The notes under the pieces were generated by a model. The model worked only from the letters and a program-made list of their open reading frames with translations. It was not told the DNA's origin and did not search any database. From an uncultured virus (IMG/VR IMGVR_UViG_3300030019_000018) (taxonomy: Duplodnaviria > Heunggongvirae > Uroviricota > Caudoviricetes > Crassvirales), in IMG/VR virus record IMGVR_UViG_3300030019_000018: 30,039 bases of DNA. The stretch is one strand, 5' to 3'. Of this stretch, positions 4,930-30,039 are shown in pieces. The position numbers and the translations under genes were made by a program. Each line of letters opens with the position of its first letter. Position 1 is the stretch's first letter.

Positions 4930-4932
4930 ATT

Positions 4933-5595
4933 ATGGATACAGATAAAATATTTAGTAATTTTAAAACAGCTCCTTGGTACATAAAATCCAAGGAAGAAAC
5001 TATTCTTTTGACTGGTGTAGGAGGTATAGGTAGTAATACTATTATGGCTTTAGGGAAAACAATTCCTGCAAAATACTTCATTATTGATGATGATATAGTA
5101 GAAACTCACAACATAGGCACACAAGCCTTTAGAGAATCGCAAATTGGGCAAACTAAAGTACAAGCATGTTGTGACAATATTGATTATAAAAATATAATTG
5201 GTATTAAAAAGTTAGTTAAAAATGAATACAATCCTATTACCATCATGGGCTTTGACAACATGAAAGCTCGTAAATTAATCTTTGATAATTGGAAAGAAAA
5301 AGAGGATAGAGAAATACTTATTGATGGCAGATTAAGAGCTAATTTTTATGAAGTCTTTGTAGTTACTAAAGGAAGAGAAAGAAAATATGAAAAAACTTTA
5401 TTTGATGATAATGAGGTAGATACAATGCCTTGTACTTATAAGCAAACTGCTTATTTTGGAATGCTTATAGGAGCTAGGATTACACATGTATTATGTAATT
5501 ATTTAATAAATAAATATTCTGAAGAACCCTACTGTGTGGTACCATTTAAAATAGAAGAGTTGGGAGATATGTTTTTTAATAAATTAACACTATAA
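4933..5595 (+). CDS. ThiF/MoeB/E1-family adenylyltransferase
   Basis: GVGGIGS nucleotide-binding loop, DDDIVETHNIGTQ, KVQA, GFDNMKAR and IDGR, with a candidate catalytic Cys167 (MPCT). No CxxC zinc pairs. Confidence 0.9.
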   Translation: MDTDKIFSNFKTAPWYIKSKEETILLTGVGGIGSNTIMALGKTIPAKYFIIDDDIVETHNIGTQAFRESQIGQTKVQACCDNIDYKNIIGIKKLVKNEYNPITIMGFDNMKARKLIFDNWKEKEDREILIDGRLRANFYEVFVVTKGRERKYEKTLFDDNEVDTMPCTYKQTAYFGMLIGARITHVLCNYLINKYSEEPYCVVPFKIEELGDMFFNKLTL

Positions 5596-10828: not shown

Positions 10829-11380
10829 ATGGAATATGGTATAGCCTTAATTGGACTGTTATTATTGTGTGGCTTATTATATCAACACAATAAAAAAATA
10901 GATGAATTATTTTTAGGAATTAACAAATATAACAGTAAATTAATTAAAGAGAAGAAAGGTAAAATAAAGTTTAAAAGAGGATATGAAAAGACAGAACATC
11001 CAATTATTCCTATAATTCTAAAAGAACATATTTATTATGTGCTACTAGATACAGGAGCTAATAATAATATTATTGATTACACTTTATTAAAGGCAATATA
11101 TAAGGAGGATAATTTAGAAGTAGAGAGTACAGAACCTATTAATTGTGGTACTAATAGTTTTAATAATGTACACAAAGTAAAATTAGATTTTCAAATTGAA
11201 ACTGATATTTATTTTCAAAAATGTACAGAATATTTTTCTATTTTAGATATAAAGCCTACTTTAGATGTTATATCTAATAAATATGAAAGAGAAATAATTG
11301 GAATACTTGGTACCAAGTTCTTTAATGATAATCATTTTAGAATTGATTTTGATAATTATTTAATTACTATTAATAAATGA
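10829..11380 (+). CDS. Retropepsin-like aspartic protease with an N-terminal membrane anchor
   Basis: VLLDTGANNNII catalytic DTG motif, IIGILGTKFF C-terminal motif, and hydrophobic N-terminus GIALIGLLLLCGLLY. Confidence 0.75.
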   Translation: MEYGIALIGLLLLCGLLYQHNKKIDELFLGINKYNSKLIKEKKGKIKFKRGYEKTEHPIIPIILKEHIYYVLLDTGANNNIIDYTLLKAIYKEDNLEVESTEPINCGTNSFNNVHKVKLDFQIETDIYFQKCTEYFSILDIKPTLDVISNKYEREIIGILGTKFFNDNHFRIDFDNYLITINK

Positions 11381-12667
11381 TATATTTAGTAAGTAGTCAA
11401 TTAAGTCTATTTGATTCTTCTAATTATACAAAACTTACATTAGAGGGCTCTATTAAAATGATAGAGTCTTTTAATGTAATACAATTTGATACTGAAACTA
11501 CTGGAAGAGATGCACATATATGTGATATATTATGTGCTCAATTTGGTAATAAAAAACAAGATATTCAAATTGTAGTAGATACTACTACTATATCTATTTT
11601 ACATTATAAGAAGTTATTAGAAACTAAACTTATTATAGGTCAAAATCTAAAATTTGATTTACAATTTTTATTCAAATATAATATTATACCTACTAAAGTA
11701 TATGATACTATGATAGTAGAACAATTATTATATTTAGGTTATCCTCCTGGAAATATACCTGGAGGAATAAGTTTCTCATTACTAGCTATTGCTAAAAGAT
11801 ATTTAAATATAGATTTAGATAAATCAATTAGAGGTGAAATTATATGGAGAGGTCTTGATGATTCTGTAATAGTTTATGCTGCTAATGATGTAAAATGGTT
11901 AGAAGATATAGTAGAAAAACAAATAGAAGAATGTAAAAGAAAAGACTGCATAATAGGAGCTAAATTAGAATGTGATTTTGTACCTGTAATATCATATTTA
12001 GAATGGTGTGGTATAAAATTAGATGTAGATAAATGGAATAAAAAGATGTTAAAAGATAAGTTAAATATGCAAAATGGTGCTATTAAACTTAATATATTTA
12101 CAATAGCTTTAAATAATCCAAAATTTTATGTTTCTAATTTACAAGGTGATCTATTTGAAGGTTTTAATTCAGAACCTGTATGTAATATAAATTGGGCAAG
12201 TTCACAACAAGTAATAAAACTTGCTAAATATTTAGGATTTGATACTAAAGTAGTAGATAAAAAGACAGGAGAAGATAAAGAAAGTGTTTTAGAAAAGCAT
12301 TTAAAAGGACAAAAAGGAATAAATGATGATTTTTTAAAAATATATTTTGATTATAAAGAAGCTGAAAAAGTAGTAAGCACTTATGGACAAAAATATTTAA
12401 ATGCTATAAATCCTTTAACTGAAAGAATACATACCCAATTTAAACAAATTGGTGCTTCTTCTTCTAGGATGTCATGCGGTAGTAAACAAATTAATACTGA
12501 TTTAGCTAAACTTAAAAAATTACCTATTAAACCTTCTAATAAACAAAGTGACTTAGTATGTTCTTATCCTCAATTACAGAATCTACCTGCAGATGAAGAT
12601 ACTAGAAGTGCCTTTATTTCAAAGAAAGATAACTATATGTGTAGTTGTGATTATAGTGCCTTAGAGT
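11377..12667 (+). CDS. polA: DNA polymerase family A, exon 1 (3'-5' exonuclease domain to motif A). Spliced CDS join(11377..12667,13737..13917,14796..15423) = 2100 nt, 699 aa
   Basis: ExoI FDTETTG, ExoII GQNLKFD, ExoIII YAANDV, then SSRMS, PQLQNLP and motif A CDYSALE. The unspliced ORF reads on into the intron and stops at 12693. Confidence 0.9.
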
Positions 12668-12709
12668 TAATAAAACTTGTTACATATATTTAGTATTTTA
12701 CTATAACTA

Positions 12710-12740
12710 TTGTATTTACTGATTATTTTACTTATCTTTG
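12710..12740 (+). promoter_or_regulatory. Bacteroidota-type sigma70 promoter inside intron 1, upstream of the LAGLIDADG ORF
   Basis: TTG (12710-12712), 20-nt spacer, TATCTTTG (12733-12740), an exact TAnnTTTG -7 element 27 nt before the ATG at 12768. Confidence 0.65.
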
Positions 12741-12767
12741 CATATTAATAATAAAGAGTAAGTTATA

Positions 12768-13607
12768 ATGAGTAAATTTACAAAAGAAAAAGAACTAGAA
12801 ATTGTTAAAATGTATAAATTAGGAAAATCTCAAAAAGATATAGCTAATTTTTACAATACTTTTAATACTTCTATAAGAAGAGTTTTAATTAGAAATAATA
12901 TAAAAATTAGAAAAGGTGAAAAAGTTTTGAGATTATGTAAAAATAATCCATTTAAAAGAAATTGTGAGTATTCAGAATATTTTCTAGGATTACTTCTTAC
13001 AGATGGTTGTATCAGTAAGGGTAGAGAAAAAAAGAATAGTACTATTAGTCTATCTTTAAATGAAAGAGATGGTTATATTGTAGAACAATTTAGAAATTTC
13101 ATTAATCCTAATCTAAAATTACAAAAAGTATTACAAAATTTAAATAATTCTTACATGCATGCAGTATGTTTTACTAATTGTGAAGTAGAAGAATGGTTAA
13201 AAAGAAAAGGTAATTTTAATAATAAAAGTTATGATTGTAAAATATATACTCCTATAACATGGAATATACTAAGAGGTATATTTGATGGAGATGGGGGATT
13301 TCATTCTAGTTGTAACCACTTAGGTTTTTTTATTTGTGGTAGATCATTAGTATTTATTGAACAAATTAAAAATTTTTTATTAAAATATGGTTTTACAGTA
13401 TATTTAAGAAAAAGAAAAAATAGTATTTCTGATTCTTTATTTTTATATTACGTAGAAATTCATAAAATAAATGAGGTACTAAAACTAGGAGAATTAATGT
13501 ATGGAAATTCCCATATTTTTATAAAAAGAAAATATGATAAATGGCTCGCCTTCTATGAAAGTAGAAGGGCATATACCTTAAATTCAGGGAAAGAGATGGA
13601 AATCTAA
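12768..13607 (+). CDS. Intron-encoded double-motif LAGLIDADG homing endonuclease with an N-terminal HTH
   Basis: Two motifs, YFLGLLLTDGCI and ILRGIFDGDGGF. The N-terminal KSQKDIANFYNTFNTSIRRVL is HTH-like. Confidence 0.9.
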   Translation: MSKFTKEKELEIVKMYKLGKSQKDIANFYNTFNTSIRRVLIRNNIKIRKGEKVLRLCKNNPFKRNCEYSEYFLGLLLTDGCISKGREKKNSTISLSLNERDGYIVEQFRNFINPNLKLQKVLQNLNNSYMHAVCFTNCEVEEWLKRKGNFNNKSYDCKIYTPITWNILRGIFDGDGGFHSSCNHLGFFICGRSLVFIEQIKNFLLKYGFTVYLRKRKNSISDSLFLYYVEIHKINEVLKLGELMYGNSHIFIKRKYDKWLAFYESRRAYTLNSGKEMEI

Positions 13608-13736
13608 TCCTGAGCGAAATCTATTCACCTACTAGGTAATTATAAAGAGATAGAGACGTGCAGAGACTATAATAGGTACACCTAAGTATAATAATTATAT
13701 ATGGTGAAGGGATAGTCCAACCTTAACAAGTGGTAG

Positions 13737-13917
13737 CAAGATTAGGAGCAGATATATATAATGAAACTGCTATGTTAAAAGAATTTTTAGAAGGTGGTGG
13801 AGATATGCACAGTTTATGTGCTAAGATGGTTTATTATGAGGATTTAAAAGATGTAGAAGTAAAAGATGTTAAAAAGTTACGTCCTGATTTAAGACATGAT
13901 GTTAAACCAATTGAGTT
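13737..13917 (+). CDS. polA: DNA polymerase family A, exon 2 (end of motif A to motif B)
   Basis: 181 nt encoding (S)RLGADIYNE...GDMHSLCAKM...PDLRHDVKPIE(F). It is in frame with exons 1 and 3 after splicing. Confidence 0.9.
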
Positions 13918-14795
13918 CAAAAAGGCTGGACTCCTTATATAGAAATATATATGTAAAAACGTAAATAACGGAGAATGCTAGAACTCCGTGATGGTATAAT
14001 ATATATACCTTCCTAGAGACTACTAATACGGATCTAAATGTAAAAATATTTTTACACAAGATTAAGGAATAGTCCAAAAATTAATAATTATATGAAACAA
14101 AGATTTTGTAAAGTTTGTGGTAAGCTTCAAACCATTAGTGAACATGGTAATTTATGTTGGAAACATTATATACAATTTAAAAAATATGGTAAATTTTTAG
14201 ACACAAATTCAAGAACTAAAAATGTACCTAATGAATTTAGATTTATAGGTAATGATACAGTAGAGTTAGATACTTATGATAATTTTGGAACAAAAAATTA
14301 TACATATTTAATAGACACTGATGATTATCCTTTAATAAGTAGACATAAATGGTGTACTGCTTTATATAAAAATAAACCTTATGCCATGGAAGGCTGTTCC
14401 AGAATTAAATTACATAGATTCATATTGAATCCTAAACCAGGCTCTTTAATAGATCATATAGATGGTAATTCATTAAATAATAAAAAAAATAATTTAAGAG
14501 TAGCTAGTTCTTCTTTAAATGGGATAAATTTATTAAAAGATGGGTTACAACACAAAGGAGTATATCAAAAAAAGTCTGGAAAATGGTATGCAGTATTACA
14601 ATGGCAAGGAAAGCAGTATTTTTCAAATATGTATTATTTACAAGAAGAAGCTTGTTTTGCTAGATATTTAATGGAACAATTATTTGTTCCTCATACTATT
14701 ATTCAATGTAATCAGGATGCTATTAATAAATTATCTTTAATTCAAAAAGATAATATAATTAATACTATAAATAAAAAGTTTCATAATTAATTAAG
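13918..14795 (+). mobile_element. Group I intron 2 in polA, carrying an HNH-AP2 homing endonuclease
   Basis: The exon ends in U (13917) and the intron in G (14795). Splicing gives GAG TT|C AGC CAA = KPIEF-SQQFGG. P1: exon GAGTT pairs with GACTC (13929-13933) with a U.G wobble at the splice site. P10: GGCTG (13924-13928) pairs with 3' exon CAGCC (14796-14800). P4 ACGGAG/CTCCGT; P7 GACTA (14018-14022)/TAGTC (14070-14074). Confidence 0.9.
14092..14790 (+). CDS. Intron-encoded HNH homing endonuclease with a C-terminal AP2-like domain
   Basis: LHRFI...IDHIDGNSLNNKKNNLRVA (HNH), then HKGVYQKKSGKWYAVL...EEACFAR (AP2-like), with an N-terminal CKVC...CWKH zinc-finger-like motif. It lies 3' of P7. Confidence 0.9.
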   Translation: MKQRFCKVCGKLQTISEHGNLCWKHYIQFKKYGKFLDTNSRTKNVPNEFRFIGNDTVELDTYDNFGTKNYTYLIDTDDYPLISRHKWCTALYKNKPYAMEGCSRIKLHRFILNPKPGSLIDHIDGNSLNNKKNNLRVASSSLNGINLLKDGLQHKGVYQKKSGKWYAVLQWQGKQYFSNMYYLQEEACFARYLMEQLFVPHTIIQCNQDAINKLSLIQKDNIINTINKKFHN

Positions 14796-15423
14796 CAGCC
14801 AACAGTTTGGAGGATCAGAATTTGCTATAGCATCTGCATTAGGGTGTAGTATAGAAGAAGCTTTAAAATTTAAAAATGCTTATGATGAAGGTTTTAAAGG
14901 TGTGACAGAATTTAAAAATAAAGGCAGTAAGTTTGTAAGAGAAAATGGTTATATATTAATATGTAAATATACTGGACATAAAATATATTGGTATGATTGG
15001 AAAGAATGGAAAGATAGACAGAAATCTTTTAATAGTGAATTTTGGGATGAATACAAAACATTAAAATCTTTTTTAAGTCCCTCAGAATGGAATAGTCATC
15101 CTATGAGGCAAAAAGTAAGTTATCATTTTAAAGCCGCTTCAAAGTATGACAGATTAGCTCTCAACTCCCCTACCCAGGGAACAGGTATTATTTGTTTAAA
15201 GCATGCTATGATAGATTTTTTTAATTGGATTGTTGCAAATAATTTATTTAACATTGTATTAATTTGTAATTTAGTACATGATGAAGCAGTTATAGAATAT
15301 CCTAAAAGTATGCCTGATATAGCAAAAATATTACAAGAGAAAATGGAACATGCTACCAGTATTTATTGTAAAAAACTACCTATACCTGCATGTTCAGAAA
15401 TATCAGATCATTGGGTACATTAA
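14796..15423 (+). CDS. polA: DNA polymerase family A, exon 3 (motif B end to motif C)
   Basis: SQQFGGSEFAI...RLALNSPTQGTG...NLVHDEAV (motif C)...WVH. The track ORF at 14902 is an internal GTG of this exon. Confidence 0.9.
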
Positions 15424-17729: not shown

Positions 17730-18635
17730 ATGCGACTAATTAAACCTTACACAGAGATCTTAGAGCAAAAAGATCTATTTAAACACATTGAATTATGTGG
17801 GAGAGTTGCTTATAAAAGTGAAAATAAAATAACTGAAGATTCTGCAACTAAATTTGTAGAAAATATTAAAAACAGAAAACATGGTGCAGTATTAGAACAT
17901 GGTACTATTTATCTTATATTTGAAAATTTCACCTTGAATAGTTATAATCCAGATAAGGATGCATTAACTGGAGTTGAATTAATAGATAAATATCTGTTAA
18001 ATGCCTATTCTAAAGTTAATCTAATTGATTATACAGAAGATATTAATTTTGATTTTTATATTACTACGAATTATAGAGTTTTAGTAGAGAATGATTGGTT
18101 AGATGATTTACAATATCAATGTGAGTGTACAAAACTTCATGAGAAAAGAATTAGTGTCAAGTTAGTTTGTGACAGAGGCGTATCACATGAGTTAGTTAGG
18201 TCAAGAATATTTAGTTTTGTACAAGAAAGTACAAGGTTTTGTAATTATTCAAAAGATAAATTTGGTAATGAACTTACTTTTATTATACCAAATTGGACAG
18301 AATTAAAAGAAAATTCTTATAATTATGGTTATGATCCTGTATTTTATTTAGAAACAGAAAATACTCATGTTACTGATATTGATTATGTTTTTTTAGAAAG
18401 TTTAGCTTTGTCTGAAAGTAATTATTTAAATTTAATAGATCAATATAAATGTACACCACAACAAGCAAGGAATATATTACCAAATGCTTTAAAAACAGAA
18501 ATAATTATGACTGGTTTTGTGAGTGATTGGAAACAATTTTTTGAATTAAGATGTGCTAAAGATTGCCATCCTCAAATGTTAGAATTAACTATACCTTTGA
18601 GAGAAGAGTTTATAAAATTAGGATATGAAGTATAA
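17730..18635 (+). CDS. thyX: FAD-dependent thymidylate synthase
   Basis: CGRVAYKSE, HGAVLEH, DRGVSHELVRSRIFSFVQESTRF (ThyX motif with RSR in place of RHR), QARNILP and FFELRC. Confidence 0.9.
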   Translation: MRLIKPYTEILEQKDLFKHIELCGRVAYKSENKITEDSATKFVENIKNRKHGAVLEHGTIYLIFENFTLNSYNPDKDALTGVELIDKYLLNAYSKVNLIDYTEDINFDFYITTNYRVLVENDWLDDLQYQCECTKLHEKRISVKLVCDRGVSHELVRSRIFSFVQESTRFCNYSKDKFGNELTFIIPNWTELKENSYNYGYDPVFYLETENTHVTDIDYVFLESLALSESNYLNLIDQYKCTPQQARNILPNALKTEIIMTGFVSDWKQFFELRCAKDCHPQMLELTIPLREEFIKLGYEV

Positions 18636-18678
18636 ATAAAAATAGGGGTAGATTAATTCTACCCCTTAAGTTTTTTTT
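18634..18678. terminator. Bidirectional intrinsic terminator between the converging gene blocks
   Basis: Stem AGGGGTAGA (18644-18652)/TCTACCCCT (18658-18666), with T8 at 18671-18678 on the + strand and an A-rich run at 18634-18642 giving a U-tract on the - strand. Confidence 0.85.
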
Positions 18679-18690
18679 ACTATCGCCTAA

Positions 18691-21600
18691 TCAATGTTTA
18701 AAGAATGTAAGTCTTGTAGATGGGTCTATGGCACCTTCAATACTTCTATAAGTAGGAATAGCTTGTAATATCCAATTAGGACCATTTAAATCTCCTTGTT
18801 TATCTGTTTGGAATGATTTTAAAGATATAATTTTTAATATTCTTTGTGCATACCCAATATTAGCAGTAGGAGATTGTACTATTTGTAATCCTTGAGTAAT
18901 AGCAGCAGGTGTTGGAGTATAAAATGCCATTTCATTATTTATTCTATATAATTGATATTCTAACATTTTAGCAAGCCACGGTCTATCTTTATCTCCAAAA
19001 TCTATTAATCCTATTGCTAAAGCAGAAGCAAGAAACACTCCCATTTCTATAGAAGCTCTTTTTACATTAGATTTTTCTGTAGGATTAAGTTTATCCCAAT
19101 TAGCTTTTACATAAAAATCCATTTTTCTTAAATCTTTAGCAGTTTGTAATAAGAATTTACCAGTAGTTCTATAATAACCTTCAGTCCATTCTCCTAATGC
19201 ATAATTATATTGTGCTTGACCATATCTTTGAGATATAGCGATAGGAATCCATTTTCTAAATAACATTATCATTCTACCTTCAGCATATCTTTGTATCTCT
19301 GCTAAGTCTGCTTTATTATGAAGGCCATGTAATCTATTATTAATTTCTCTACCTTTTAAAGTAAAGTCTTTAACATCCTCTTTAGTGAATTGAGTGCCAT
19401 CTAATTTAGTATAGCCTTCTTTTACTTCTAATGTAGCACCTTTGTTTTTATTGTTATCATCTATGTATTTAGATTCTAAGGCTTCATATAATGGAACTTC
19501 TTTACCTTCGGGAGATAACATTTTATATCTATCTGCTAAAGCTAAATATGTTCTAGTTTGCATGTAATGCTCCCCACAAGTTGACATAAATTGTAAAGAT
19601 TCTAATTTTAAACCTCTAGCCAACCATGTCTTTCTATCCATGTTAATGTCTCTATTTTTTGAATTAGATCCATTTAAGCAATCAAATTTCTCAATAAATA
19701 GATTTAATTTAGATATTTTAACTCTATTTCCAACTTCTCCAAGTAAATCTAATAATCCTTGACCATAATATTTATCTCCTTTAGCTAAATTTTTTACATT
19801 AATATATTGTCCAGATAAAGCTTCTATTCCTGCTAAAGTCTTTCCAGTAACAACATTACCTATACCTTGTAAAACATTCAATCCTAAACTATATGTAGCA
19901 GTCATACCACTTACAGTATCCATAAGTTTAGCTTTATCTATTTTAGTATTACCAATTGTTCCTTGATCTACTTTTAATTCTCCATATACTTGAGCATCTA
20001 AATAACCTTCTAATTTAGAACCTATATTACTTTCTACACCTTTTTTAGTAAGTTTTCTTTTAACGTCTTGACCAAAACTTCTTATAGATTCTTCTTGTAC
20101 TTTACCTCCTTTTTTAGAAGTTACTTGCTTAGCATTTATTACATTATGTCCTATTTCTAACATATCTATAACTTTATTCATTTCATCAAAGTTTATAGCC
20201 ATGTCTGCATAAGCAATTAGATTAGAAGTTGCATCTAAAGATAAATCTTTCATATTATCTAATTTGGAAGTAAAATAAACAGGAATTACTTTAACTTCTT
20301 TACCTTCAAAATCAGTTACAACACTTCTAGTTCCAAACTCATCATCATCTTCTCTTCTTAATATTTTATCCTTAACTCCCTCAATAAAAGTATCTTTAGG
20401 ATTAGATAAAAATCTCTCTAATTCATCTTTTCTTATGAAGGGAACTTTTCCAGTTTGTTTGTATTTATCTGGTAAATAAGAATCTAATAGTTCTTTAGTT
20501 TCTTTTATAGTTTTTAGATAAGTATGTTGTGCTTCTGATAAATTATTATAAGTAGTATTTCCATATATAGACAATTTAGGAGTTTTAAAATCATCTTTAG
20601 TATCCATATTATCTCTATACCATTGAGCCATTATTTTTTTATACTCAATGTTAGCAATATTAGAATCTAAACTTTTAACAACTTCTTCTGCTTTCTTTTC
20701 AGCCTCTTTTAAATTTTCTTGAAATTTATAATACTTTATTTCAGATATATATTTACCAGTTGGAATACCTTCATTATCTAGCTCATGTACCCATTTTGTG
20801 TCTTTTATACCTGATTTTTCTAATTCTATTTGTGCTGCTTGAAGTGCTTTTTTAGCATCAATGGCTCTAAGTCTTTTATTTTCATGACTATCTTTAACTA
20901 TAGAATCAAATAATCTTAAAGAAGCATCATTACTGTTACTTAAAGCACTAAACCATTTGTCTAAAATCCCAATATCTCCATCTTGAGATTCTTTAAGTAA
21001 TTCTTCTAAAGTAGAAGTTTTAAAATTGCCATTTTCATCTTTTTGGAATGGATTAGTTAATGCTTTTTTATCTACAAATTTAGAAGCAAATTCTGCAAAT
21101 AATGGTAATATTATATCTTTATATGCTTTATCTGTTTGGGAAGTTAGATTATTTAAATTTTTAACATTTTCTTGTATTTTATCTATAAAATCTGTATCTT
21201 CATTATTTCTTGCACTGTTTAAAGCTCCTTGGAGTAACTCTAATGTTTCTTTATAAGCATCTACATAGTCTTTCATCATCCTTAAAGTTTTAGCTGTTTC
21301 TAAGGCATCTGATGTAGTGTAAGTTTTAGTTAAAGTATCAAATCTTTCTTGTACAGCTTTTAAATCTTTTATAGCTCTTTCAGTATATGTATTAATACCT
21401 GAAATTACTTCATTATCAGCTAAGTTCTTTTGAAGATTTATAATTTCTTGTTTTTGTTTTTTATCAAATTTATAGTTTCTTTCTGAAAATACATTGTATT
21501 TTTTAATTTCAGTTTGAATTATTTTATCTAATACTTCACTATAATCTTGTGTAGATTTTTCTAAACTATTTAAAGTTACTTTATTCCTAATATTAGATGC

Positions 21601-22689
21601 TTTTAGTACACTTTTAAATTTATTACTTAGTATATCTGTAGATAATTTACCTAAATCTTGTTCTATTTGTTCTTTTGAAGATAATATTTTATCATCTACT
21701 CCTTTATCTTTCAAACCTTGAAAGAAGTTTTTAATTAAATTAATAATTCTATCAAACAAAGAAGTGTTTAGATCAGTGTTAACTAAATTAGAAGCTAACA
21801 TTTTACCTAAAGCTTCTTTAGCTAAAAGTTCTTTATTTCCTTCATATAATTCATTATATTTAGAATAAGAATCTCCTAAAGTATCTACATAACTTTCATT
21901 AGATTGTATATAGTTAATTGCTCTTTTTATTAAAGGACTATCTATTAAAGCTTCAACTGCAAAATGAGCAAATTCTTCAGGTAATGCTTTTTCTCCATTT
22001 ATTCCCGGAGCTAATCTGATTAGTTCTACTAATTCTTTAGTTTCATAATCTAATTTACTAGAATCAAATACTCCATTAGCACCAATTCTTTGCTCTAACT
22101 CATTGATAGCTCCAATACTAACTTTTGCATCCTGTAGAATAGTTCTTATTCTACTATTTACTTTTTCATTATATATTTTATTTTTAACATCTAAATCAAA
22201 AGAAGAGGAAGGAGAGAGGGGGGCTTCTATGTAGTCTAGATTTACTTTTATACCATTTATTCTGTTATTACCTCCTAATCCCACTCTAGCTTTATAAAAG
22301 AATCTAAGTGGGTTACTATTATTAAATTTTGTTGTTTGTGATTGTAGAGTATTCCAATTTTTTTGATTATTATCTAAAACTGTAAATTCAGTATGATCCC
22401 CAATTTCATTAGTAAATCCACTATAATCTGCTACAGCTTTTCTTACTTCTCCATTATTAAAATCTATTCTTTTTCTCCATCCATCAGGCCATTTAGACAT
22501 TAAAAATTCTAGTGTTGGATTACCCTGCCTATCTACAGGGTATTCACTAAATTTACTTTTAATATCTTCACTTTGAGCGTAAGCTAATACTTTTGAAGCT
22601 AATTCTCTATTGTTAGTTATTTTTTTAATGTCTTCAAACAATTGTATAGGTTCTCCTTTAATTGTTCCTTTATATACACATGATTCCAT
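18691..22689 (-). CDS. Large virion/ejection (cargo) protein of the crAss-like RNAP gene block
   Basis: 1332 aa directly downstream of the vRNAP, with a zincin-like LPEEFAH, long coiled-coil-like stretches and a hydrophobic segment near the C-terminus (MGVFLASALAIGLIDF). Function is inferred from context. Confidence 0.65.
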   Translation of the reverse strand: MESCVYKGTIKGEPIQLFEDIKKITNNRELASKVLAYAQSEDIKSKFSEYPVDRQGNPTLEFLMSKWPDGWRKRIDFNNGEVRKAVADYSGFTNEIGDHTEFTVLDNNQKNWNTLQSQTTKFNNSNPLRFFYKARVGLGGNNRINGIKVNLDYIEAPLSPSSSFDLDVKNKIYNEKVNSRIRTILQDAKVSIGAINELEQRIGANGVFDSSKLDYETKELVELIRLAPGINGEKALPEEFAHFAVEALIDSPLIKRAINYIQSNESYVDTLGDSYSKYNELYEGNKELLAKEALGKMLASNLVNTDLNTSLFDRIINLIKNFFQGLKDKGVDDKILSSKEQIEQDLGKLSTDILSNKFKSVLKASNIRNKVTLNSLEKSTQDYSEVLDKIIQTEIKKYNVFSERNYKFDKKQKQEIINLQKNLADNEVISGINTYTERAIKDLKAVQERFDTLTKTYTTSDALETAKTLRMMKDYVDAYKETLELLQGALNSARNNEDTDFIDKIQENVKNLNNLTSQTDKAYKDIILPLFAEFASKFVDKKALTNPFQKDENGNFKTSTLEELLKESQDGDIGILDKWFSALSNSNDASLRLFDSIVKDSHENKRLRAIDAKKALQAAQIELEKSGIKDTKWVHELDNEGIPTGKYISEIKYYKFQENLKEAEKKAEEVVKSLDSNIANIEYKKIMAQWYRDNMDTKDDFKTPKLSIYGNTTYNNLSEAQHTYLKTIKETKELLDSYLPDKYKQTGKVPFIRKDELERFLSNPKDTFIEGVKDKILRREDDDEFGTRSVVTDFEGKEVKVIPVYFTSKLDNMKDLSLDATSNLIAYADMAINFDEMNKVIDMLEIGHNVINAKQVTSKKGGKVQEESIRSFGQDVKRKLTKKGVESNIGSKLEGYLDAQVYGELKVDQGTIGNTKIDKAKLMDTVSGMTATYSLGLNVLQGIGNVVTGKTLAGIEALSGQYINVKNLAKGDKYYGQGLLDLLGEVGNRVKISKLNLFIEKFDCLNGSNSKNRDINMDRKTWLARGLKLESLQFMSTCGEHYMQTRTYLALADRYKMLSPEGKEVPLYEALESKYIDDNNKNKGATLEVKEGYTKLDGTQFTKEDVKDFTLKGREINNRLHGLHNKADLAEIQRYAEGRMIMLFRKWIPIAISQRYGQAQYNYALGEWTEGYYRTTGKFLLQTAKDLRKMDFYVKANWDKLNPTEKSNVKRASIEMGVFLASALAIGLIDFGDKDRPWLAKMLEYQLYRINNEMAFYTPTPAAITQGLQIVQSPTANIGYAQRILKIISLKSFQTDKQGDLNGPNWILQAIPTYRSIEGAIDPSTRLTFFKH

Positions 22690-22700
22690 ATAGTTATATT

Positions 22701-25700
22701 TTAGCAGAGTTTTTCACCAGAATCTGGATCTACTGCTTTATTATTAGTTTCAAAAAAATCTTCTTTATTATCTACTCCTAAAGAATTACTATCATAGGAG
22801 CTCATTATATCATCTTGATGAGTATTTTCCATACTATCCTCATCATTATAATAAGATTCTTCATCTGGATTTTTAAATGTATCTTCTTGTTTACTTCCAT
22901 CTATAACAGATTTAAAATCTTCAATTGCTGTATTATATGAGTATTCTTGAAACTCATTTTTCATTCCTAAAGAATCTATTTTAGAATATGTTGCTTCTTT
23001 TATATTATCTGTAGAAGATTCTGTATTTTTAATATAATAATTAATTTTACCTTCTTTATCTTTAATTCCTAAAGTAGTATTCCATTGTATATCACCTTGG
23101 TTATTTAATTTAGTAATTTTAGAAACATTACTGTCATAATTAGTAGAATCATATTTAAAAGATATAGTATTTTGAATATTTTTTTCTTCTATATCATCTA
23201 ATAAAGGAGTAAATTTTCTATTATCTAAGTTATTTAATAAATATTGATTTACAAAATGAATATTTTCAAAATTAGGATTTCTTAATAAAGAATTCATAGT
23301 GTCAATATATCCTTCTATTTGCATTTTTAACTCTACTGGAGCTAAATGTATAAAAGTTTCTGGACTAAAAGCAAATCCATTTCTATGAAAGTTATAAAAG
23401 AATAAATTTTTTGCTAATTTTTTATCTTCTTCATTACCATATAACAAACTATTCCACCCATCCATAACTGATTCTCTAGTAGAAGGGGTTAACTTTCCAA
23501 CATTATTAAACCATATTTTTTCTATCTCTGTACCTTTTATTTTAGATACTGCTAATTTAGATATAAACGAATTATCTGCATATTTTTTAGATTCTAATAA
23601 ACTTTTAAATTCTTTAGGAAATTCATTAATGTAATAATTATTTTTATTTAATATTTCATTAGCCTCTCCTCCAAAAGAATTAATAGAAGATGCTATATAA
23701 GAGAAATAATCATTATATATATCATTCATAGTTTTAACATTTATCTTCTCAGACTTTGTTAAATCTTTAAAACTTCTAACTAAATTTCTAAAATTATCAG
23801 AATATTGTGGAAAATACTTGAAAAATAAAGGAATAGTAGATTGTACTCCATACAAATTAAAAGCCAATGGATATGCTAAAGAATTTTTATAAATATGTTC
23901 TCTCATTTTATCATAATCCATTAAATCTGTTTGTGTATAATCATTATTATATACATCAAGTATCCCATTTACAAAAGGTTCTAATCCTATAATTTTAGCA
24001 TCTGGAGTTTCTCTGCTTAAAGAAAAATCAATAATTTTATCTAATTTATTTATATTATCTGCTATAGATGGACCTGCACCACCATTAGAAGTATCTGATT
24101 TTAAAATAGATACAACATCTGATAAATCTTCTGCTATAGTAGATATTTTATCATACAAGGATAATACCTCAATATGATGTTTAATTAATTCTTGTGAATC
24201 TTCTTTATTATCTTTAAAGTCTTGTAAAGTTAACCCTAATTTAGTATCTCTATCTAATTCTTCTACTAAGAAAGGTTTATCTTTTATATCATTACTTTGT
24301 GGTGTGGATAGTAATTTAGAATAATCATCTATAACATCCTTAATAATATTTGCTTTAATAGGAGCAGTATTTTGTATTTTCATATACCTATCTACTACTT
24401 CTTTTATAGCAGGATGTACTAAAAGTGCTGCTACTTCAAATTCATTATATCCTAATCTAGCTAATAAACATGCTGTATCAGCAGTAAAAGTATTAATATT
24501 TAAAGTACCTAATACTGGTTGTTTGATTGCATCTACAGAAGAAGCAACTAATCCTGCTAAAGTCCTACTTATATAATGTCCTTCTTTAGATTTAATCTGA
24601 TTTAACTGTGTAAATACCTTATTATTATAAGTAAATTTAAAATCATCATTAATATGAGTATCAGTATTCTGTAATAAAGAATGATTTACATTATGATTTG
24701 CAAATATTCCAATTAATTTCTTAGCTCCCATATTTTGCTGATGCAACTCTACTTGAGTAGTAGGGTCTAATGAGTTAAAACTAGATTTTTCAGACTTATA
24801 TTTGTTCATAGCATCAATCCACTTATCAAAACCACCTGGATTCATAGATTTAGCTATTGTATCAGGATGTTGTAATATAGAAGTTAACATATCTAAAAGT
24901 AAATTATTTCTTTGCTCTACTGAACAATTTTTTAATTCTTCAGGTGTATTAACATCAACTTGTATTTTAGATATTTTATTATTATTTATTGTAAACTCTG
25001 GAGCAATAAAATATAATTTATCTATATCAAAGTCACAACCTGCAATAGTTGTAATTTCTGCAGGTAACATTATAGCACTTCCAGAGTTTTGAGGTAAAAA
25101 CCCTTTAATATATAAAGGCATCATAGAATAAGCATCTTCTGTAGGTATTCTATAACCAACTAAACTTTTTAACTCTTCTGGAAATTTATTTATATCTAAT
25201 TCTCCATTATCTCCTATAAGTTGTTCTACATATTGTTTAGAGTACCAAGGCATGTAACATTCATAGTGTTTAATATGTTTATTTGAATCTTCTCCTTCAT
25301 ATACTATATGTAAATCATCTTGTAATCCAAAAGCACTTACTTGTACTAATGAACCACCTTTAATTTTTTGTTTAGTAATTCTATTTTTAATTACAGAATT
25401 TAATAAATTTTGAATTTTTAAAGATTGTGATGGTTCAAATAATGGTATATTAAATTCTCCATTTGCATTTAAAGTTACTGCATCTACTAAATCTTGATTG
25501 TAATTATTTTTACTTGTTATTTCATCTTTAAGTAATCTTTCTAATTCATATTTATTTCCTATAACTTTTTGAGTATCATCAAAAGATTTAATTACATTTT
25601 CAACAATAGCATGATTATACCAAGACATCCACTCCTTTTTAGATAGTGTTTTATCTTTACCATTAATTGTTAAAGATATTTTTATATTAGAATCTAAATC

Positions 25701-28700
25701 TGAATGAATTAATTTTCTAATCTGTGTACCAAATAATTGTTGAGTATCTTGATAATGTTCTGGAATTTCTTGTTGTAATCCATAATCATCATAATCAAAT
25801 GTATGTACTATATCAGGATATTTAACTGCTTGATTTAAGTAATCTGAAACATCTTCTTTATTATTTAAATTATTTATATCTAAAACACCTTGTTCTCCTA
25901 CTTTAACAGCAGAGTTAAATTGTACTACATCTATATTACCTTTAGAACCATCAGAAAAAGTATGTTCTTTAGACATAAATTCTTCTAAAGCACTTAATTT
26001 AGGTGAATTGGTTATTACTCCTTGAAGTAATAACATAAACTCAGAGTTTTTATTTTGATTAGCCTGTCTTAAATAAATTGGAGAACCATTTTCATCATTT
26101 ACATGACTATTTATCATAGTATTAGTAAATAAAAAAGGTTTAAAAGCATTCAAAACAGTATTAAAATCATTAAGATTCCAATTTCCAGTTTTAATTCTAT
26201 TCATAGATTCTTCAATAGCAGTAGTTAATTTACCTGCCATATTTAATACTGCTTTATAAGAGTCCCAACTTCTATATGCTTGAGCATCAGTTAAATTAAT
26301 AGTAGATGAAGGAATAAATCCTTTATTATCTCTATATAACACTGGAGTTGGTTCTCTCCCATATTGATTTAAAGCATTGTTATAATTATCCTTACTAATT
26401 TTAACTCCATTTTTAGTATATCCTTTAGTGATGCTATCATTTGATACTACTTCTTTATATTTATCTTCATTTAAAGTAAATATTTTAGCATTATATGCAC
26501 CATATTTAGCTAAAATAGTATCTCTTTCAAAAGTATTAAGATTGCCTTTTTTAACTATAGTATCCAAAGCAGTTTTTAAATTATCTAATGTTTCTTTACT
26601 AGAAGTTACTTCAGAATCTCTAAGATATACAGTATGTTCAAATTGTCTTCCACCATCTATAGTAGTATCTAATTTAAGTCCTGGAGCATTCCATTCTTTA
26701 GATCTCTTTTGAAAATCAATTGTATCTTTATATTGAGCTAAATCATTAGTTAATAATTGAATAATTTGACTTTCTGCAAAATAAGTATTAAAGAAATATT
26801 CTTTTAATGGGTTATTATTATTACTTCTTCTATCTCCTATTTTAGTAGAATCAGTGTTAGTTAATGTATTTATATCTTTACTTCTTAAAGCTTTTGTATC
26901 TAATTCTGTAAAATTACCTTTTTCATCCATGTTAAATAATCCAGATTTATTCCATTTATTTACAGCTGAAGTAAAAGCTTCATCTAATCCATTTTCTATT
27001 TTATTTTTAATAAATAAATCAATTTCTGCTTGTTCTTTTTTATCTTTATACATTTCTTGTATAGTATCTAAATCTTCATTTAGAAACTTTAGAAATTGAA
27101 ATTTATCTCCATTAGCATCAAAGTTTTTAATTTTAGCAATATTAGGCATTGTTTTTCTAACATTAACTAAATTAATTCTATCTATTTCTTGATGAGCAAC
27201 TTGTAATAATTTATTAACAATAGTATCTTCATAATCCAATGATTTATAATTTTCATCCATATCAGAACCATTTGTATATCTTACAAATTTAATAAATCTA
27301 GCTATAGGAGCATCAGCCATAATTGGAATATGATACTTAGCAGTTTTATTATTAGGGTCTGAAAAGAACTCATGTATTAAAGCAGAAGTGTATCCTACAC
27401 TATCTAAATCAGTATAGTCTATATTATTTGAAGATAATAATAAACTATCATCCAACATATTTCTATATTTCTCTCCTAGATCATTACCTACTTCATCTTT
27501 TAAAGTTAATAATCTAAGCCATTCATTTCGGTATCCATTTTTAAAAAATAATTGAGCCTTTCCATACTCTTGTTTAACCCAATCTATATATTTTTCTATA
27601 CTATCTGCTTTAGCATTTCTAAGTAATTTAGTTAACTTTCCAAAATAATTAGGTACTAAATGAGAGTATAACATCTTATTACCTTGATGTACAGAACTTT
27701 CAAAATATTCATCTACAAAAGGAGCTATTAAATTAGCCATACTTTTATATTGACTATTTAATAAATGCAATTTATCTACTCTTTCTCTGTCAGATTGTTT
27801 AGATGCTACACTTAATATAGTTTGCAATGTATTTAATATATTCTCATAAGAAGGATATGATAGTTCTGAAGGTCTAAATGAAGTAATTTTATTTACTTCA
27901 TCAGAAGTAACATCTACTCCAACACTTCTTAGTAAATCAAATACTTTATCATTATTTCTATTTGTTAAATCTTGAATACCACTTACTTTTTCTTCAAAAG
28001 ATTTATTAGAATTATTTATTGTAGTAATATCCTTTTTTAATTCTGTTACAATATTACTATTTTTTTGAATATTGTCTTTATTAAACAATCCATCTTTATT
28101 ATAAATAGATGATTTAGTTAAAGTTATATCATTATCTAAATTATCTCTCCATTTGTTAATAAGATAAAGGATACCTTTAGGAGCATTTAAAGAAATTGTT
28201 TGTATTTTGACAGTACCATCAGGAGCAATTTGTTTCTTTTGTATATAAAAGTTTGCAGCATCCTTTCTAAAATCCTTATAAAATAAAGCTTTAGTTCTAG
28301 CTATTTCTTTACTATTTTTTTCATCTACACCATTAGTAGAATCTAATTTATCTACAACTCCTTGAATCCATTTTTTACTTATACTTAAATCTTTAAGCAT
28401 AGGTACTAAGTCTGTTCCAGAAGTCATATTTTTTAAACCTTCTATTAGTTCTGCATGAGCATAATCAGCATCCATATACACAGGAAATCCTAAATCATCT
28501 GTACTAATTTGTCCTTTATAATCTAACATGGGTATTCTTCCTAATACTTTTCTAGTTAGTGTAGATAAAGAACTTAAATTAGAAGATTCCATATAATTAG
28601 TCATCCACCTGTCTTTTTCTTCCTCTTCTTTAAAAAGGTCATCTTTATTATCTAAATCATCTGGATTATTATACTTATTATAAGAATCAGTAGTATCTAC

Positions 28701-29465
28701 AGTAGATAACTTTATATTCTCTTCCCATCCTATTTTATTAGCAGATAACTTAGATAAATCACTAAAATGATCTATTATTTTACTTACTTTATCTTTAATA
28801 CTTTGATCTATATCTGAATCTAATAATCCTTTAAATTCATTTTTAATATCATTAAATATTTCAGATGGATTATATTCTTGTATAATATCAATTCTTGATT
28901 TATTTGGTTGTGCTTCATTTAATTGTGATACTCTTTCTACAAATAAATTAGCAAGTAAATCTACTCTTCTTTTCCTTTCCTCTGGAGTAAATTTAATGTA
29001 AATATCTTGTTTAGATTTTAATTTACTTAATATTTTACTTGTAGTAATAGGACGCATTTCAACACTATAAGGTAAAATAACATTGTCTGGAATACCTATA
29101 GTATCATTTATTTCATTTAATACATCTTTACTATCTTGTAATTTATCTAATACGTCATTACTAATATAGACTTTATCTTCAGATTCTTTAGCATTTTTAA
29201 TACTATTAATAATAGACTGTTTCACATCTCCTTCTACATTTATAGTAGATTTATTATCAGTATTTAATTCTCTAATATTAAGATGTTTATGTTTATCACT
29301 TGTAGATAAATATTCTACAAACTTAGATTCAATATCTTTATCATCTAAGGATATATTATTTTTTTCTGAAAATACAGCAAGTTGGGAAGAAACCACTATA
29401 GGTTTTAATCCCAACTTATCTGAAATATTAGTTATTAATTTTGAATTTTTATTTATACAACTCAT
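22701..29465 (-). CDS. Virion-packaged DNA-dependent RNA polymerase (crAss-like single-chain two-barrel RNAP)
   Basis: 2254 aa with catalytic GCDFDIDK (DFDID at 25020-25034), preceded by GYRIPTE; also FQKRSKE, TDAQAY, SAVKVG, FGTQIRKLI and SVDAIK. Confidence 0.88.
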   Translation of the reverse strand: MSCINKNSKLITNISDKLGLKPIVVSSQLAVFSEKNNISLDDKDIESKFVEYLSTSDKHKHLNIRELNTDNKSTINVEGDVKQSIINSIKNAKESEDKVYISNDVLDKLQDSKDVLNEINDTIGIPDNVILPYSVEMRPITTSKILSKLKSKQDIYIKFTPEERKRRVDLLANLFVERVSQLNEAQPNKSRIDIIQEYNPSEIFNDIKNEFKGLLDSDIDQSIKDKVSKIIDHFSDLSKLSANKIGWEENIKLSTVDTTDSYNKYNNPDDLDNKDDLFKEEEEKDRWMTNYMESSNLSSLSTLTRKVLGRIPMLDYKGQISTDDLGFPVYMDADYAHAELIEGLKNMTSGTDLVPMLKDLSISKKWIQGVVDKLDSTNGVDEKNSKEIARTKALFYKDFRKDAANFYIQKKQIAPDGTVKIQTISLNAPKGILYLINKWRDNLDNDITLTKSSIYNKDGLFNKDNIQKNSNIVTELKKDITTINNSNKSFEEKVSGIQDLTNRNNDKVFDLLRSVGVDVTSDEVNKITSFRPSELSYPSYENILNTLQTILSVASKQSDRERVDKLHLLNSQYKSMANLIAPFVDEYFESSVHQGNKMLYSHLVPNYFGKLTKLLRNAKADSIEKYIDWVKQEYGKAQLFFKNGYRNEWLRLLTLKDEVGNDLGEKYRNMLDDSLLLSSNNIDYTDLDSVGYTSALIHEFFSDPNNKTAKYHIPIMADAPIARFIKFVRYTNGSDMDENYKSLDYEDTIVNKLLQVAHQEIDRINLVNVRKTMPNIAKIKNFDANGDKFQFLKFLNEDLDTIQEMYKDKKEQAEIDLFIKNKIENGLDEAFTSAVNKWNKSGLFNMDEKGNFTELDTKALRSKDINTLTNTDSTKIGDRRSNNNNPLKEYFFNTYFAESQIIQLLTNDLAQYKDTIDFQKRSKEWNAPGLKLDTTIDGGRQFEHTVYLRDSEVTSSKETLDNLKTALDTIVKKGNLNTFERDTILAKYGAYNAKIFTLNEDKYKEVVSNDSITKGYTKNGVKISKDNYNNALNQYGREPTPVLYRDNKGFIPSSTINLTDAQAYRSWDSYKAVLNMAGKLTTAIEESMNRIKTGNWNLNDFNTVLNAFKPFLFTNTMINSHVNDENGSPIYLRQANQNKNSEFMLLLQGVITNSPKLSALEEFMSKEHTFSDGSKGNIDVVQFNSAVKVGEQGVLDINNLNNKEDVSDYLNQAVKYPDIVHTFDYDDYGLQQEIPEHYQDTQQLFGTQIRKLIHSDLDSNIKISLTINGKDKTLSKKEWMSWYNHAIVENVIKSFDDTQKVIGNKYELERLLKDEITSKNNYNQDLVDAVTLNANGEFNIPLFEPSQSLKIQNLLNSVIKNRITKQKIKGGSLVQVSAFGLQDDLHIVYEGEDSNKHIKHYECYMPWYSKQYVEQLIGDNGELDINKFPEELKSLVGYRIPTEDAYSMMPLYIKGFLPQNSGSAIMLPAEITTIAGCDFDIDKLYFIAPEFTINNNKISKIQVDVNTPEELKNCSVEQRNNLLLDMLTSILQHPDTIAKSMNPGGFDKWIDAMNKYKSEKSSFNSLDPTTQVELHQQNMGAKKLIGIFANHNVNHSLLQNTDTHINDDFKFTYNNKVFTQLNQIKSKEGHYISRTLAGLVASSVDAIKQPVLGTLNINTFTADTACLLARLGYNEFEVAALLVHPAIKEVVDRYMKIQNTAPIKANIIKDVIDDYSKLLSTPQSNDIKDKPFLVEELDRDTKLGLTLQDFKDNKEDSQELIKHHIEVLSLYDKISTIAEDLSDVVSILKSDTSNGGAGPSIADNINKLDKIIDFSLSRETPDAKIIGLEPFVNGILDVYNNDYTQTDLMDYDKMREHIYKNSLAYPLAFNLYGVQSTIPLFFKYFPQYSDNFRNLVRSFKDLTKSEKINVKTMNDIYNDYFSYIASSINSFGGEANEILNKNNYYINEFPKEFKSLLESKKYADNSFISKLAVSKIKGTEIEKIWFNNVGKLTPSTRESVMDGWNSLLYGNEEDKKLAKNLFFYNFHRNGFAFSPETFIHLAPVELKMQIEGYIDTMNSLLRNPNFENIHFVNQYLLNNLDNRKFTPLLDDIEEKNIQNTISFKYDSTNYDSNVSKITKLNNQGDIQWNTTLGIKDKEGKINYYIKNTESSTDNIKEATYSKIDSLGMKNEFQEYSYNTAIEDFKSVIDGSKQEDTFKNPDEESYYNDEDSMENTHQDDIMSSYDSNSLGVDNKEDFFETNNKAVDPDSGEKLC

Positions 29466-29475
29466 TTTATTTATT

Positions 29476-30039
29476 TTAAAATCCTAGACAATCTAAAGTA
29501 TTTTTTCTTTCTTCTTCAGTAAAGACATTATCCCAATCATTATCAGAAACATCAAATTTACTTAAAGAATCTTTTATTTCTTGAGAAAGATTTGCAAATT
29601 TAGCAATTTTACCGACTTCTTCACTATTAATTATGTTATTTTTTGTTAAAGTTTCTTCAGTTTTATTATCAACTTTTAAACTATTGTTTCCCAGTCTATT
29701 AAATAAAGAAGGAGAAGAGGTAGAAGGGGCTTTATCTTGTTTTACATTATAAAGTTTATTATAAAAATTCTTAATTTCTTCTTCGGATGTTAAAAAAGAT
29801 TCTGTTTTTATATTAAAAATTTTATTAAACTCTTTATTAACAAGAACATTATCACCATTGACTCTTTCTTTTTTCCATTGTAGATCATTCCAATTAGATT
29901 TAATAAATGCTTTTGCTCTTATAGTATCTTTTTCTATAGCATCTTTAATATCCTGTTCTATGTAACCTTTTTTATCATCTTGTTTATATATTTTATTATT
30001 AGTTAAATCTACAAATAATTTACCTTCTTTATGTACAAT
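29476..30039 (-). CDS. 3' end of an upstream large virion-associated protein (partial; missing from the ORF track)
   Basis: The - strand frame is open from the window edge (IVHKEGKLFVD...) to ...WDNVFTEEERKNTLDCLGF and TAA at 29476-29478, 10 nt before the vRNAP ATG. Confidence 0.8.
   Translation of the reverse strand: MVHKEGKLFVDLTNNKIYKQDDKKGYIEQDIKDAIEKDTIRAKAFIKSNWNDLQWKKERVNGDNVLVNKEFNKIFNIKTESFLTSEEEIKNFYNKLYNVKQDKAPSTSSPSLFNRLGNNSLKVDNKTEETLTKNNIINSEEVGKIAKFANLSQEIKDSLSKFDVSDNDWDNVFTEEERKNTLDCLGF

Follow-up and report, generated by a model that had tools for sequence, protein, structure and literature searches.

We analyzed a 30,039-nucleotide stretch of DNA from an uncultured virus assigned to Crassvirales (IMG/VR record IMGVR_UViG_3300030019_000018), which we refer to, at its full length, as the window. 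It belongs to a deep-branching, AT-rich lineage (~25% G+C), and its minus strand carries, from position 30039 to 18691, three closely packed giant open reading frames (ORFs). These code for a cargo protein related to gp47 of the cultured phage crAss001, for a virion RNA polymerase (vRNAP) corresponding to crAss001 gp50, and for a second giant cargo protein related to gp49, in the colinear order 47-50-49 (Table 1). Crassviruses are the most abundant human gut phages, and they pack and inject ~700 kDa of polymerase-associated cargo. Here, we describe a cysteine (Cys) residue at each of the four protein ends that face one another across the two gene junctions, a pattern that is conserved across Crassvirales and that probably reflects a head-to-tail tie between the three proteins.

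The three proteins together contain 10 Cys in 4385 amino acids (aa) (0.23%), and 4 of the 10 are located at the four facing ends, at positions -4 and 3 across junction 1 and -1 and 4 across junction 2. The gp47-like ORF, which can be followed for at least 799 aa up to the end of the 45,979-base contig (G000:C1:3-2402), where it is cut, has a single Cys at position -4. The vRNAP has Cys at positions 3, 1403, 1477, 1514, 1666, and 2254, and the gp49-like protein at 4, 1004, and 1038, with no Cys near its aromatic C-terminus (...TRLTFFKH). A preliminary description of the window had reported these termini (TLDCLGF at the end of the upstream protein, MSC and EKLC at the two ends of the vRNAP, MESC at the start of the 1332-aa protein and no Cys at its C-terminus) together with about 6 and 3 Cys in the latter two proteins; translation reproduces the termini exactly, and the counts are exactly 6 and 3. 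It had also judged the arrangement unlikely by chance. We calculate a joint chance of 2.9e-9 for the four terminal matches when each protein's own Cys count is placed at random, and of 2.5e-6 at the window-wide Cys frequency of 1.17%, both values being post hoc, and these bear out that judgment. In the remaining 22 window ORFs that reach 100 aa, Cys makes up ~1.7%, and only one of them carries a Cys among the first 8 residues and one among the last 8. Cys is depleted in the three giants but not absent, as it is from ejection proteins of the Schitoviridae type. The MSC and MESC starts are the first possible start codons in their frames, with none earlier. All three ORFs end with TAA stop codons, so the window does not encode the one continuous ORF of a fused RNA polymerase (RNAP)-block polyprotein. 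A shared DNA motif at the junctions, which might have accounted for the Cys codons, was considered and rejected, because the 10- and 11-nucleotide (nt) spacers have none in common.

Table 1. Features of the giant-protein block in the window
Feature	Position	Strand	Remarks
gp47-like cargo gene, 3' end	29476..30039	-	runs past window end
Codon of Cys fourth from end of gp47-like protein	29488-29490	-	C-terminal tail ...EEERKNTLDCLGF, ends ...TLDCLGF
Junction 1 spacer	29466..29475	-	10 nt, gp47-like stop codon to vRNAP start codon
vRNAP gene	22701..29465	-	2254 aa; crAss001 gp50 / phi14:2 gp66 type
vRNAP Cys3 codon	29457-29459	-	N-terminus MSC
vRNAP catalytic DFDID	25020..25034	-	residues 1478-1482; two-barrel RNAP; motif position
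vRNAP Cys2254 codon	22704-22706	-	last residue; C-terminus ...EKLC
Junction 2 spacer	22690..22700	-	11 nt, vRNAP stop codon to gp49-like start codon
gp49-like giant cargo gene	18691..22689	-	1332 aa
gp49-like Cys4 codon	22678-22680	-	N-terminus MESC
G+C-rich hairpin GGGGTAG...CTACCCC with T-run	18638..18666	-	just 3' of gp49-like stop codon; read from sequence

Judged by its sequence, the 2254-aa window protein is the Crassvirales virion RNA polymerase of the phi14:2 gp66 / crAss001 gp50 type. A tblastn search with the vRNAP matched 143 phage records, all at <60% identity, and the named phages among the matches listed are crass-type phages. The best match reached 34.6% identity, and the crAss001 'putative RNA polymerase' gp50 31-32%. 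A profile built from 26 homologues (alignment A3) matches the phi14:2 polymerase (6vr4_A) with an E-value of 2e-105. The window protein contains the DFDxD motif, and Asp-1478, Asp-1480, and Asp-1482 are invariant in vRNAP alignments A1 and A3; in the same alignments Cys-2254 is invariant and Cys-3 nearly so. The residue directly preceding the motif is Cys-1477 (codon 25035-25037), giving AGCDFDID here versus SGSDFD in the family consensus. Together with the gp47 and gp49 homologues alongside, the DFDID motif and the profile match confirm the label 'vRNAP' and the crAss-like setting given to this locus in the preliminary description. Single-sequence approaches were less informative: Pfam and PHROGs scans of the three giants returned nothing useful, phmmer found no match among Protein Data Bank (PDB) sequences for the vRNAP or the 1332-aa protein, and an IMG/VR search with the single vRNAP sequence returned no close relatives. 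Over all searches, no relative nearer than ~35-39% identity was found.

The gp49-like protein shares 37.8% identity with crAss001 gp49 over 1319 aa, and its Cys-4 is invariant in alignments A2 and A4. In an AlphaFold2 model of its residues 1-350 (mean predicted local distance difference test score, pLDDT, 68.8), residues 1-8 are coil and residues 1-3 have pLDDT <50, which is compatible with an exposed N-terminal tail, although this is weak as evidence. Co-folding of the C-terminal 305 aa of the vRNAP with the N-terminal 350 aa of the gp49-like protein gave a score of 0.03 (mark, 0.32) in a run without controls, and we used it neither for nor against binding. The gp47-like protein is 25% identical to crAss001 gp47 over 793 aa (E-value 1e-37). 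It aligns to residues 870-1606 of the crAss001 protein and terminates 63 residues further on, and it is without the ~700-aa C-terminal part that carries the HEAFH sequence (at 2157) in crAss001 gp47; no HExxH zincin motif is found in its visible 799 aa. It does keep the gp47 C-terminal tail motif EER..(T/A)L.C, which contains the Cys in question.

We next examined the conservation of the terminal Cys residues. Our vRNAP homologue set comprises the 120 best-scoring of 826 matches, with 30-48% identity over best local alignments that cover 19-95% of the query. Overall Cys frequency in these 120 proteins is 0.16%, and yet 115 have a Cys within the first 5 residues and 119 within the first 8; at the C-terminus a Cys is present within the last 5 residues in 41/120, within the last 12 in 117/120, and within the last 15 in all 120. 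The sole N-terminal exception (P0007) begins within the conserved region and seems to be truncated. Using the best 80 of 505 confirmed loci from an alignment-based scan of IMG/VR, we extended the tabulation to the entire block. Here, ORF calling began at the first ATG, with a minimum length of 250 aa, and BLAST against the window and crAss001 proteins gave the assignments; in L027 and L050 this ATG fell within the gene upstream, and the next ATG was taken instead. Counting the first 8 residues as N-terminal and the last 15 as C-terminal, Cys is found at both ends of all 57 unbroken complete vRNAP ORFs, at the C-terminus of 51/51 gp47-type ORFs but at none of their 4 complete N-termini, and at the N-terminus of 68/69 gp49-type ORFs but at none of 68 C-termini. 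The lone gp49-type ORF without one comes from L052, where the ORF is broken and this is its second piece. In control ORFs of these loci, N-terminal Cys occurs in 12/172 (7%) and C-terminal Cys in 33/172 (19%), and Cys content is 1.54% versus 0.15% in the three families. Another six complete vRNAP ORFs, each one half of a broken gene (L017, L042, and L077), have Cys at the native end only; in these three loci the vRNAP gene, and in L052 the gp49-type gene, is split into two ORFs by ~1 kb of inserted DNA or a frame change. One locus with a vRNAP tblastn match (L049) was excluded, as translation table 11 yields no family ORF there that reaches 250 aa; stop-codon reassignment is a possibility.

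Across lineages the distance of the junction Cys from the chain end is 3-7 residues at N-termini and 1-9 at C-termini, and all four are kept in Crassvirales down to ~23% identity. The preliminary description had proposed such a tabulation in orthologous gene blocks and had named lack of conservation as the outcome that would speak against a link; the terminal Cys are instead kept across Crassvirales, including crAss001 and phi14:2. Gp49-type proteins (window 18691-18720; homologues L002-L081) end in a conserved aromatic motif (...FFK[QH], ...WYK, ...WF..), never in Cys, and this motif might serve to dock the chain's last link.

The cultured relatives show this arrangement too. In crAss001, gp47 (2341 aa) has a single Cys at 2339 (-3), gp50 (2412 aa) has Cys at 5, 1334, and 2404 (-9), and the only Cys of gp49 (1349 aa) is at 5. 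Although this phage has its gp47 gene on the opposite strand, the C-terminal Cys is present; the terminal-Cys rule therefore tracks the proteins and not gene adjacency. Two further crAss001 cargo proteins, gp45 (842 aa, Cys at 390 and 398) and gp46 (534 aa, no Cys), have no terminal Cys. In phi14:2, the one Cys of gp67 (1797 aa) is its last residue, gp66 (2180 aa) has Cys at 3 and 2179, and gp65 (1421 aa) has Cys at 3, so that 5398 aa contain exactly four Cys, all on facing ends.

In a number of lineages two or all three of the proteins are fused, which allowed us to compare split and fused junctions. We sorted the loci into 44 non-redundant clusters at 70% identity of the polymerase core, including crAss001, phi14:2, and p-crAssphage; L036, L042, and L069 were excluded because DFDxD was not found in the ORF used. 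Modules were mapped in all ORFs of at least 2800 aa, and p-crAssphage LMMB and L035 were added. At split junction 1 (gp47|vRNAP), Cys is present on both sides in all 21 clusters in which both sides are seen, and on the vRNAP side in 9 more clusters in which only this side is seen. At split junction 2 (vRNAP|gp49), both sides have Cys in 34/34 clusters; in one more cluster the representative, L033, is broken, but L035, which is nearly identical to it, has both Cys. The outer ends of the block behave differently: across the 44 clusters, Cys is found in 0/14 first-protein N-termini and 0/42 last-protein C-termini. Where junction 1 is fused (9 clusters), the ORFs have 0-1 Cys and none at the junction, and where junction 2 is fused (7 clusters), 6 lack a junction Cys, the ORFs being entirely free of Cys.

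Four architectures were encountered. With all three proteins separate, as in the window, crAss001, phi14:2, and most loci, Cys is present at each of the four facing ends. Where gp47 and the vRNAP are fused and gp49 is separate (L035, L051, L052, and L067; 3919-4631 aa), the fusion protein has one Cys, at its C-terminal end, and none at its N-terminus, and the following gp49 keeps its N-terminal Cys. In LMMB, gp47 is separate and the vRNAP is fused to gp49 (4070 aa); this protein keeps Cys3 and has no C-terminal Cys, and the preceding gp47-type 'zincin' protein has Cys at -2. Fusions of all three proteins contain no Cys at all, both in L056, L061, L066, and L078 (5005-5711 aa) and in L063 (5472 aa), where the gp47 part is weakly detected, and in the 5'-cut L057. 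A quick maximum-likelihood tree of the RNAP core requires 9 architecture changes versus a mean of 13.7 after shuffling, and the well-supported branches alone demand several origins of each fused type. The exchange between split and fused forms thus occurred repeatedly. A hidden Markov model of the gp49 N-terminal 350 aa gave no match in the fused ORFs, and BLAST with sister-lineage ends placed the fused junctions roughly, those of LMMB and L069 not being placed.

These comparisons amount to a family rule, according to which a chain end has a Cys if and only if another protein of the 47-50-49 set follows there. The simplest reading of this rule is that the Cys pair is interchangeable with a peptide bond and would join the chains, because Cys becomes dispensable, down to zero in >5000 residues, when the chain is continuous. 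The pairing would be gp47 C-terminus to vRNAP N-terminus and vRNAP C-terminus to gp49 N-terminus, since the single-fusion architectures keep exactly the adjacent pair. We estimate at roughly 0.6 the probability that the four terminal Cys are clasps tying the three separate cargo proteins head to tail, most likely by two inter-protein disulfides in the assembled particle. A disulfide is the most likely chemistry because such a bond between two ejection proteins, gp27 and gp26 of cyanopodophage A4, has been seen by cryo-electron microscopy (cryo-EM) and because other inter-subunit disulfides are present in crAss001 particles (PMC10172136). The preliminary description had proposed that disulfides or shared metal sites link each C-terminus to the next N-terminus in gene order. 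The link itself is supported by the conservation, the Cys-free outer ends, and the fused junctions; gene order is not the determinant, given the opposite strand of crAss001 gp47. An intramolecular link between the two vRNAP ends is excluded by the single-fusion architectures. An intein/Hint-like or N-terminal-nucleophile role of the 'M-x-C-hydrophobic' start was also dropped, as the sole Cys of the gp47 and gp49 types is terminal and the polyproteins are Cys-free.

In the assembled particle, the two disulfides would turn the three window proteins into a quasi-linear thread of >4400 residues that may act like the single polyprotein encoded by other Crassvirales. As the Cys lies 1-9 residues from the chain end, each joint would be no thicker than two strands and could pass the narrow tail channel together with the partly unfolded proteins, and the scarcity of other Cys would avoid branched cross-links. 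The tie may ensure that the three proteins are packaged together and ejected in sequence, and thiol reductants of the host cytoplasm would then undo it. The preliminary description had invoked capsid packing and unfolded ejection of these giants as known for crAss-like phages, and this agrees with what is reported for crAss001: gp47, gp49, and gp50 were detected in virions by mass spectrometry and placed in a capsid cargo zone, and the cargo must unfold partly to exit via the tail, whose channel has constrictions of <50 Å (PMC10172136). Virion packaging and ejection of this polymerase type are known only from crAss001 and phi14:2 (PMC10172136; record notes).

Several points weigh against such a tie. 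The cytoplasm in which the particles assemble is reducing, and many of the hosts are strict anaerobes. The disulfides of the crAss001 tail may have formed after purification in air, and the available text of the crAss001 atlas and of the phi14:2 preprint does not mention a covalent link between crassvirus cargo proteins. The new breaks in L017, L042, L077, and L052 have not acquired Cys; they are probably frameshifts or inserted elements, introns, or assembly errors. Two fused vRNAP+gp49 ORFs, LMMB with 8 Cys and L069 with 26, hold internal Cys, and their junctions are not finely placed. The core tree comes from a quick search with long-branch warnings, so that the number of independent events is approximate. 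Finally, loss of both Cys upon fusion would also follow if each end needed its own Cys for a separate purpose.

This last point leads to an alternative in which every terminal Cys acts alone, anchoring its end to the portal, the inner capsid, or other cargo, or carrying a modification. Fusion would then simply remove the ends, and both Cys would be expected to go together as the two termini are deleted. LMMB encodes, two genes upstream of its gp47-type gene, an 861-aa protein (L083:245-2830) whose single Cys is at -2 (...GKQSCR) and which has no obvious partner, as this alternative would allow; the 857-aa protein next to it has no Cys, nor does the gp47-type N-terminus. We nevertheless regard unpaired Cys as improbable. 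The outer ends are Cys-free (0/14 and 0/42), the triple fusions manage without any Cys, so that no Cys chemistry beyond joining seems needed, and crAss001 gp45 and gp46 provide no terminal Cys partner. Pairing is favored over separate roles because of the Cys-free outer ends and polyproteins, and these alone argue for it.

The same head-to-tail tie could also be made without a disulfide, the facing thiolates, perhaps with acidic residues, sharing a metal ion or forming another thiol-based link. The comparative pattern indicates that the Cys pair replaces a peptide bond but is silent on the chemistry, the vRNAP C-termini are often acidic (D-x-[DE]-G-[ND]-x-[IL]-C), and a metal link could form in a reducing, anoxic cell. 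However, one conserved Cys per end supplies only two thiolates per junction, with no conserved His, and the one solved precedent, gp27-gp26 of phage A4, is a disulfide. A single center built from all four Cys was dropped altogether, as single-fusion lineages keep exactly one adjacent pair. We thus consider a non-disulfide tether unlikely, if slightly less so than unpaired Cys. To chance, composition, or gene-calling artifacts we assign next to no weight. It is true that the windows of 4-15 residues were picked after the data had been seen and that N-termini depend on the choice of start, the first ATG having been used and the start shifted in two loci. Yet chance would give the four matches in the window with a joint probability of 3e-9 to 3e-6, 44 lineages at 23-50% identity and three cultured phages show the same pattern, the control ORFs reach only 7% and 19%, and no earlier start codon exists in the window; conservation has already refuted this explanation.

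If the head-to-tail tie by disulfides holds, it may have a wider sense. We tentatively propose, as an idea more speculative than the tie itself and with the odds somewhat against it, that the Cys pairs are reversible stand-ins for peptide bonds in a 'split polyprotein', with gp47 as starter, the vRNAP as extender, and gp49 as terminator. The tie would set the threading order of the ~700 kDa cargo, reduction would free and activate the polymerase, and together with phage A4 the arrangement might represent a general ejection principle of short-tailed phages. End-to-end disulfide chaining would then be a general ejection principle that has so far gone unrecognized. The terminal-Cys rule predicts which ends join and is directly testable in two cultured phages. 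It would also account for the purge of other Cys from the giants, for the occurrence of the genes as fusions in some lineages and as separate units in others at no apparent cost, and for the way in which stoichiometry and ejection order could be secured without a scaffold.

Some neighboring features of the window may be recorded here. The hairpin downstream of the gp49-like gene (Table 1) sits between this gene and a convergent ThyX gene (17730-18635, plus strand) and is likely the terminator closing the gp49-like block. A family A DNA polymerase gene lies in pieces on the plus strand at 11377-15423, with the exonuclease and N-terminal polymerase part at 11377-12693 and the C-terminal polymerase part at 14902-15423. 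Between them are a LAGLIDADG ORF (12768-13607) and an HNH ORF (14092-14790), and the interruption looks like an intron or homing-endonuclease insertions. At 3802-5595 (plus strand), two adjoining ORFs match a JAB domain (3802-4929; weak, under the Pfam cut-off) and a ThiF/E1-like domain (4933-5595), and they may form a ubiquitin-like conjugation or deconjugation pair in the phage replication module.

We compared the window to other systems for which giant ejected proteins have been described. A statement of the terminal-Cys rule was not found in full-text literature searches that included the accessible text of the crAss001 atlas, the phi14:2 preprint, the DEV paper, and the 2026 N4 paper. These terminal Cys are not mentioned in the available portions of Bayfield 2023 (PMC10172136) or of the Drobysheva phi14:2 preprint. 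The cargo proteins were not resolved in the 2023 crAss001 atlas (PMC10172136), and the 2026 N4 paper calls for structures of crassvirus cargo proteins (PMC13434306). The closest counterparts are crAss001 gp47/gp50/gp49 and gp67/gp66/gp65 of the Cellulophaga phage phi14:2 (gp66, PDB 6VR4), homologous giants with a central DFDxD polymerase and the same terminal-Cys rule, to which the window proteins are only 25-38% identical. The gene order in the window is that of phi14:2 and differs from crAss001 in the strand of gp47. Fused crAss-like RNAP-block polyproteins have the three modules in the same order as the window; in them a peptide bond makes the link and no junction Cys occur, whereas the three ORFs of the window are closed by stop codons and separated by 10-11-nt spacers.

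In Schitoviridae (N4-like phages), a giant virion-packed polymerase is likewise ejected via a narrow tail and Cys is strongly suppressed, with passage through the periplasm suggested as the reason (PMC11445570); the N4 vRNAP has been called 'beads on a string' (PMC13434306). Proteins of the N4 type are described as Cys-free, they consist of a single chain, and their polymerase fold is reported to be unrelated, whereas the depletion in the window spares exactly the facing ends. In cyanopodophage A4, a disulfide between Cys-1715 of gp27 and Cys-5 of gp26 joins two ejection proteins of the pre-ejectosome inside the capsid, as resolved by cryo-EM (PNAS 2025, PMC12002296). In the window a Cys within a few residues of one C-terminus likewise faces a Cys near the next N-terminus; the phage A4 bond links a Cys near the C-terminal helix of one protein to residue 5 of its neighbor, and this geometry is the one we propose for the window. 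Phage A4 differs in having a single pair, in being an unrelated podophage with a folded five-fold ring, and in lacking a polymerase among these proteins (PMC12002296), and the available text of that study does not describe the bond in terms of chaining, a rule that is conserved, or a replacement for fused genes. One such bond in one unrelated phage is hence already known; what our comparison would add is a conserved chain of two links that includes the polymerase and appears to be interchangeable with fused genes throughout a phage order.

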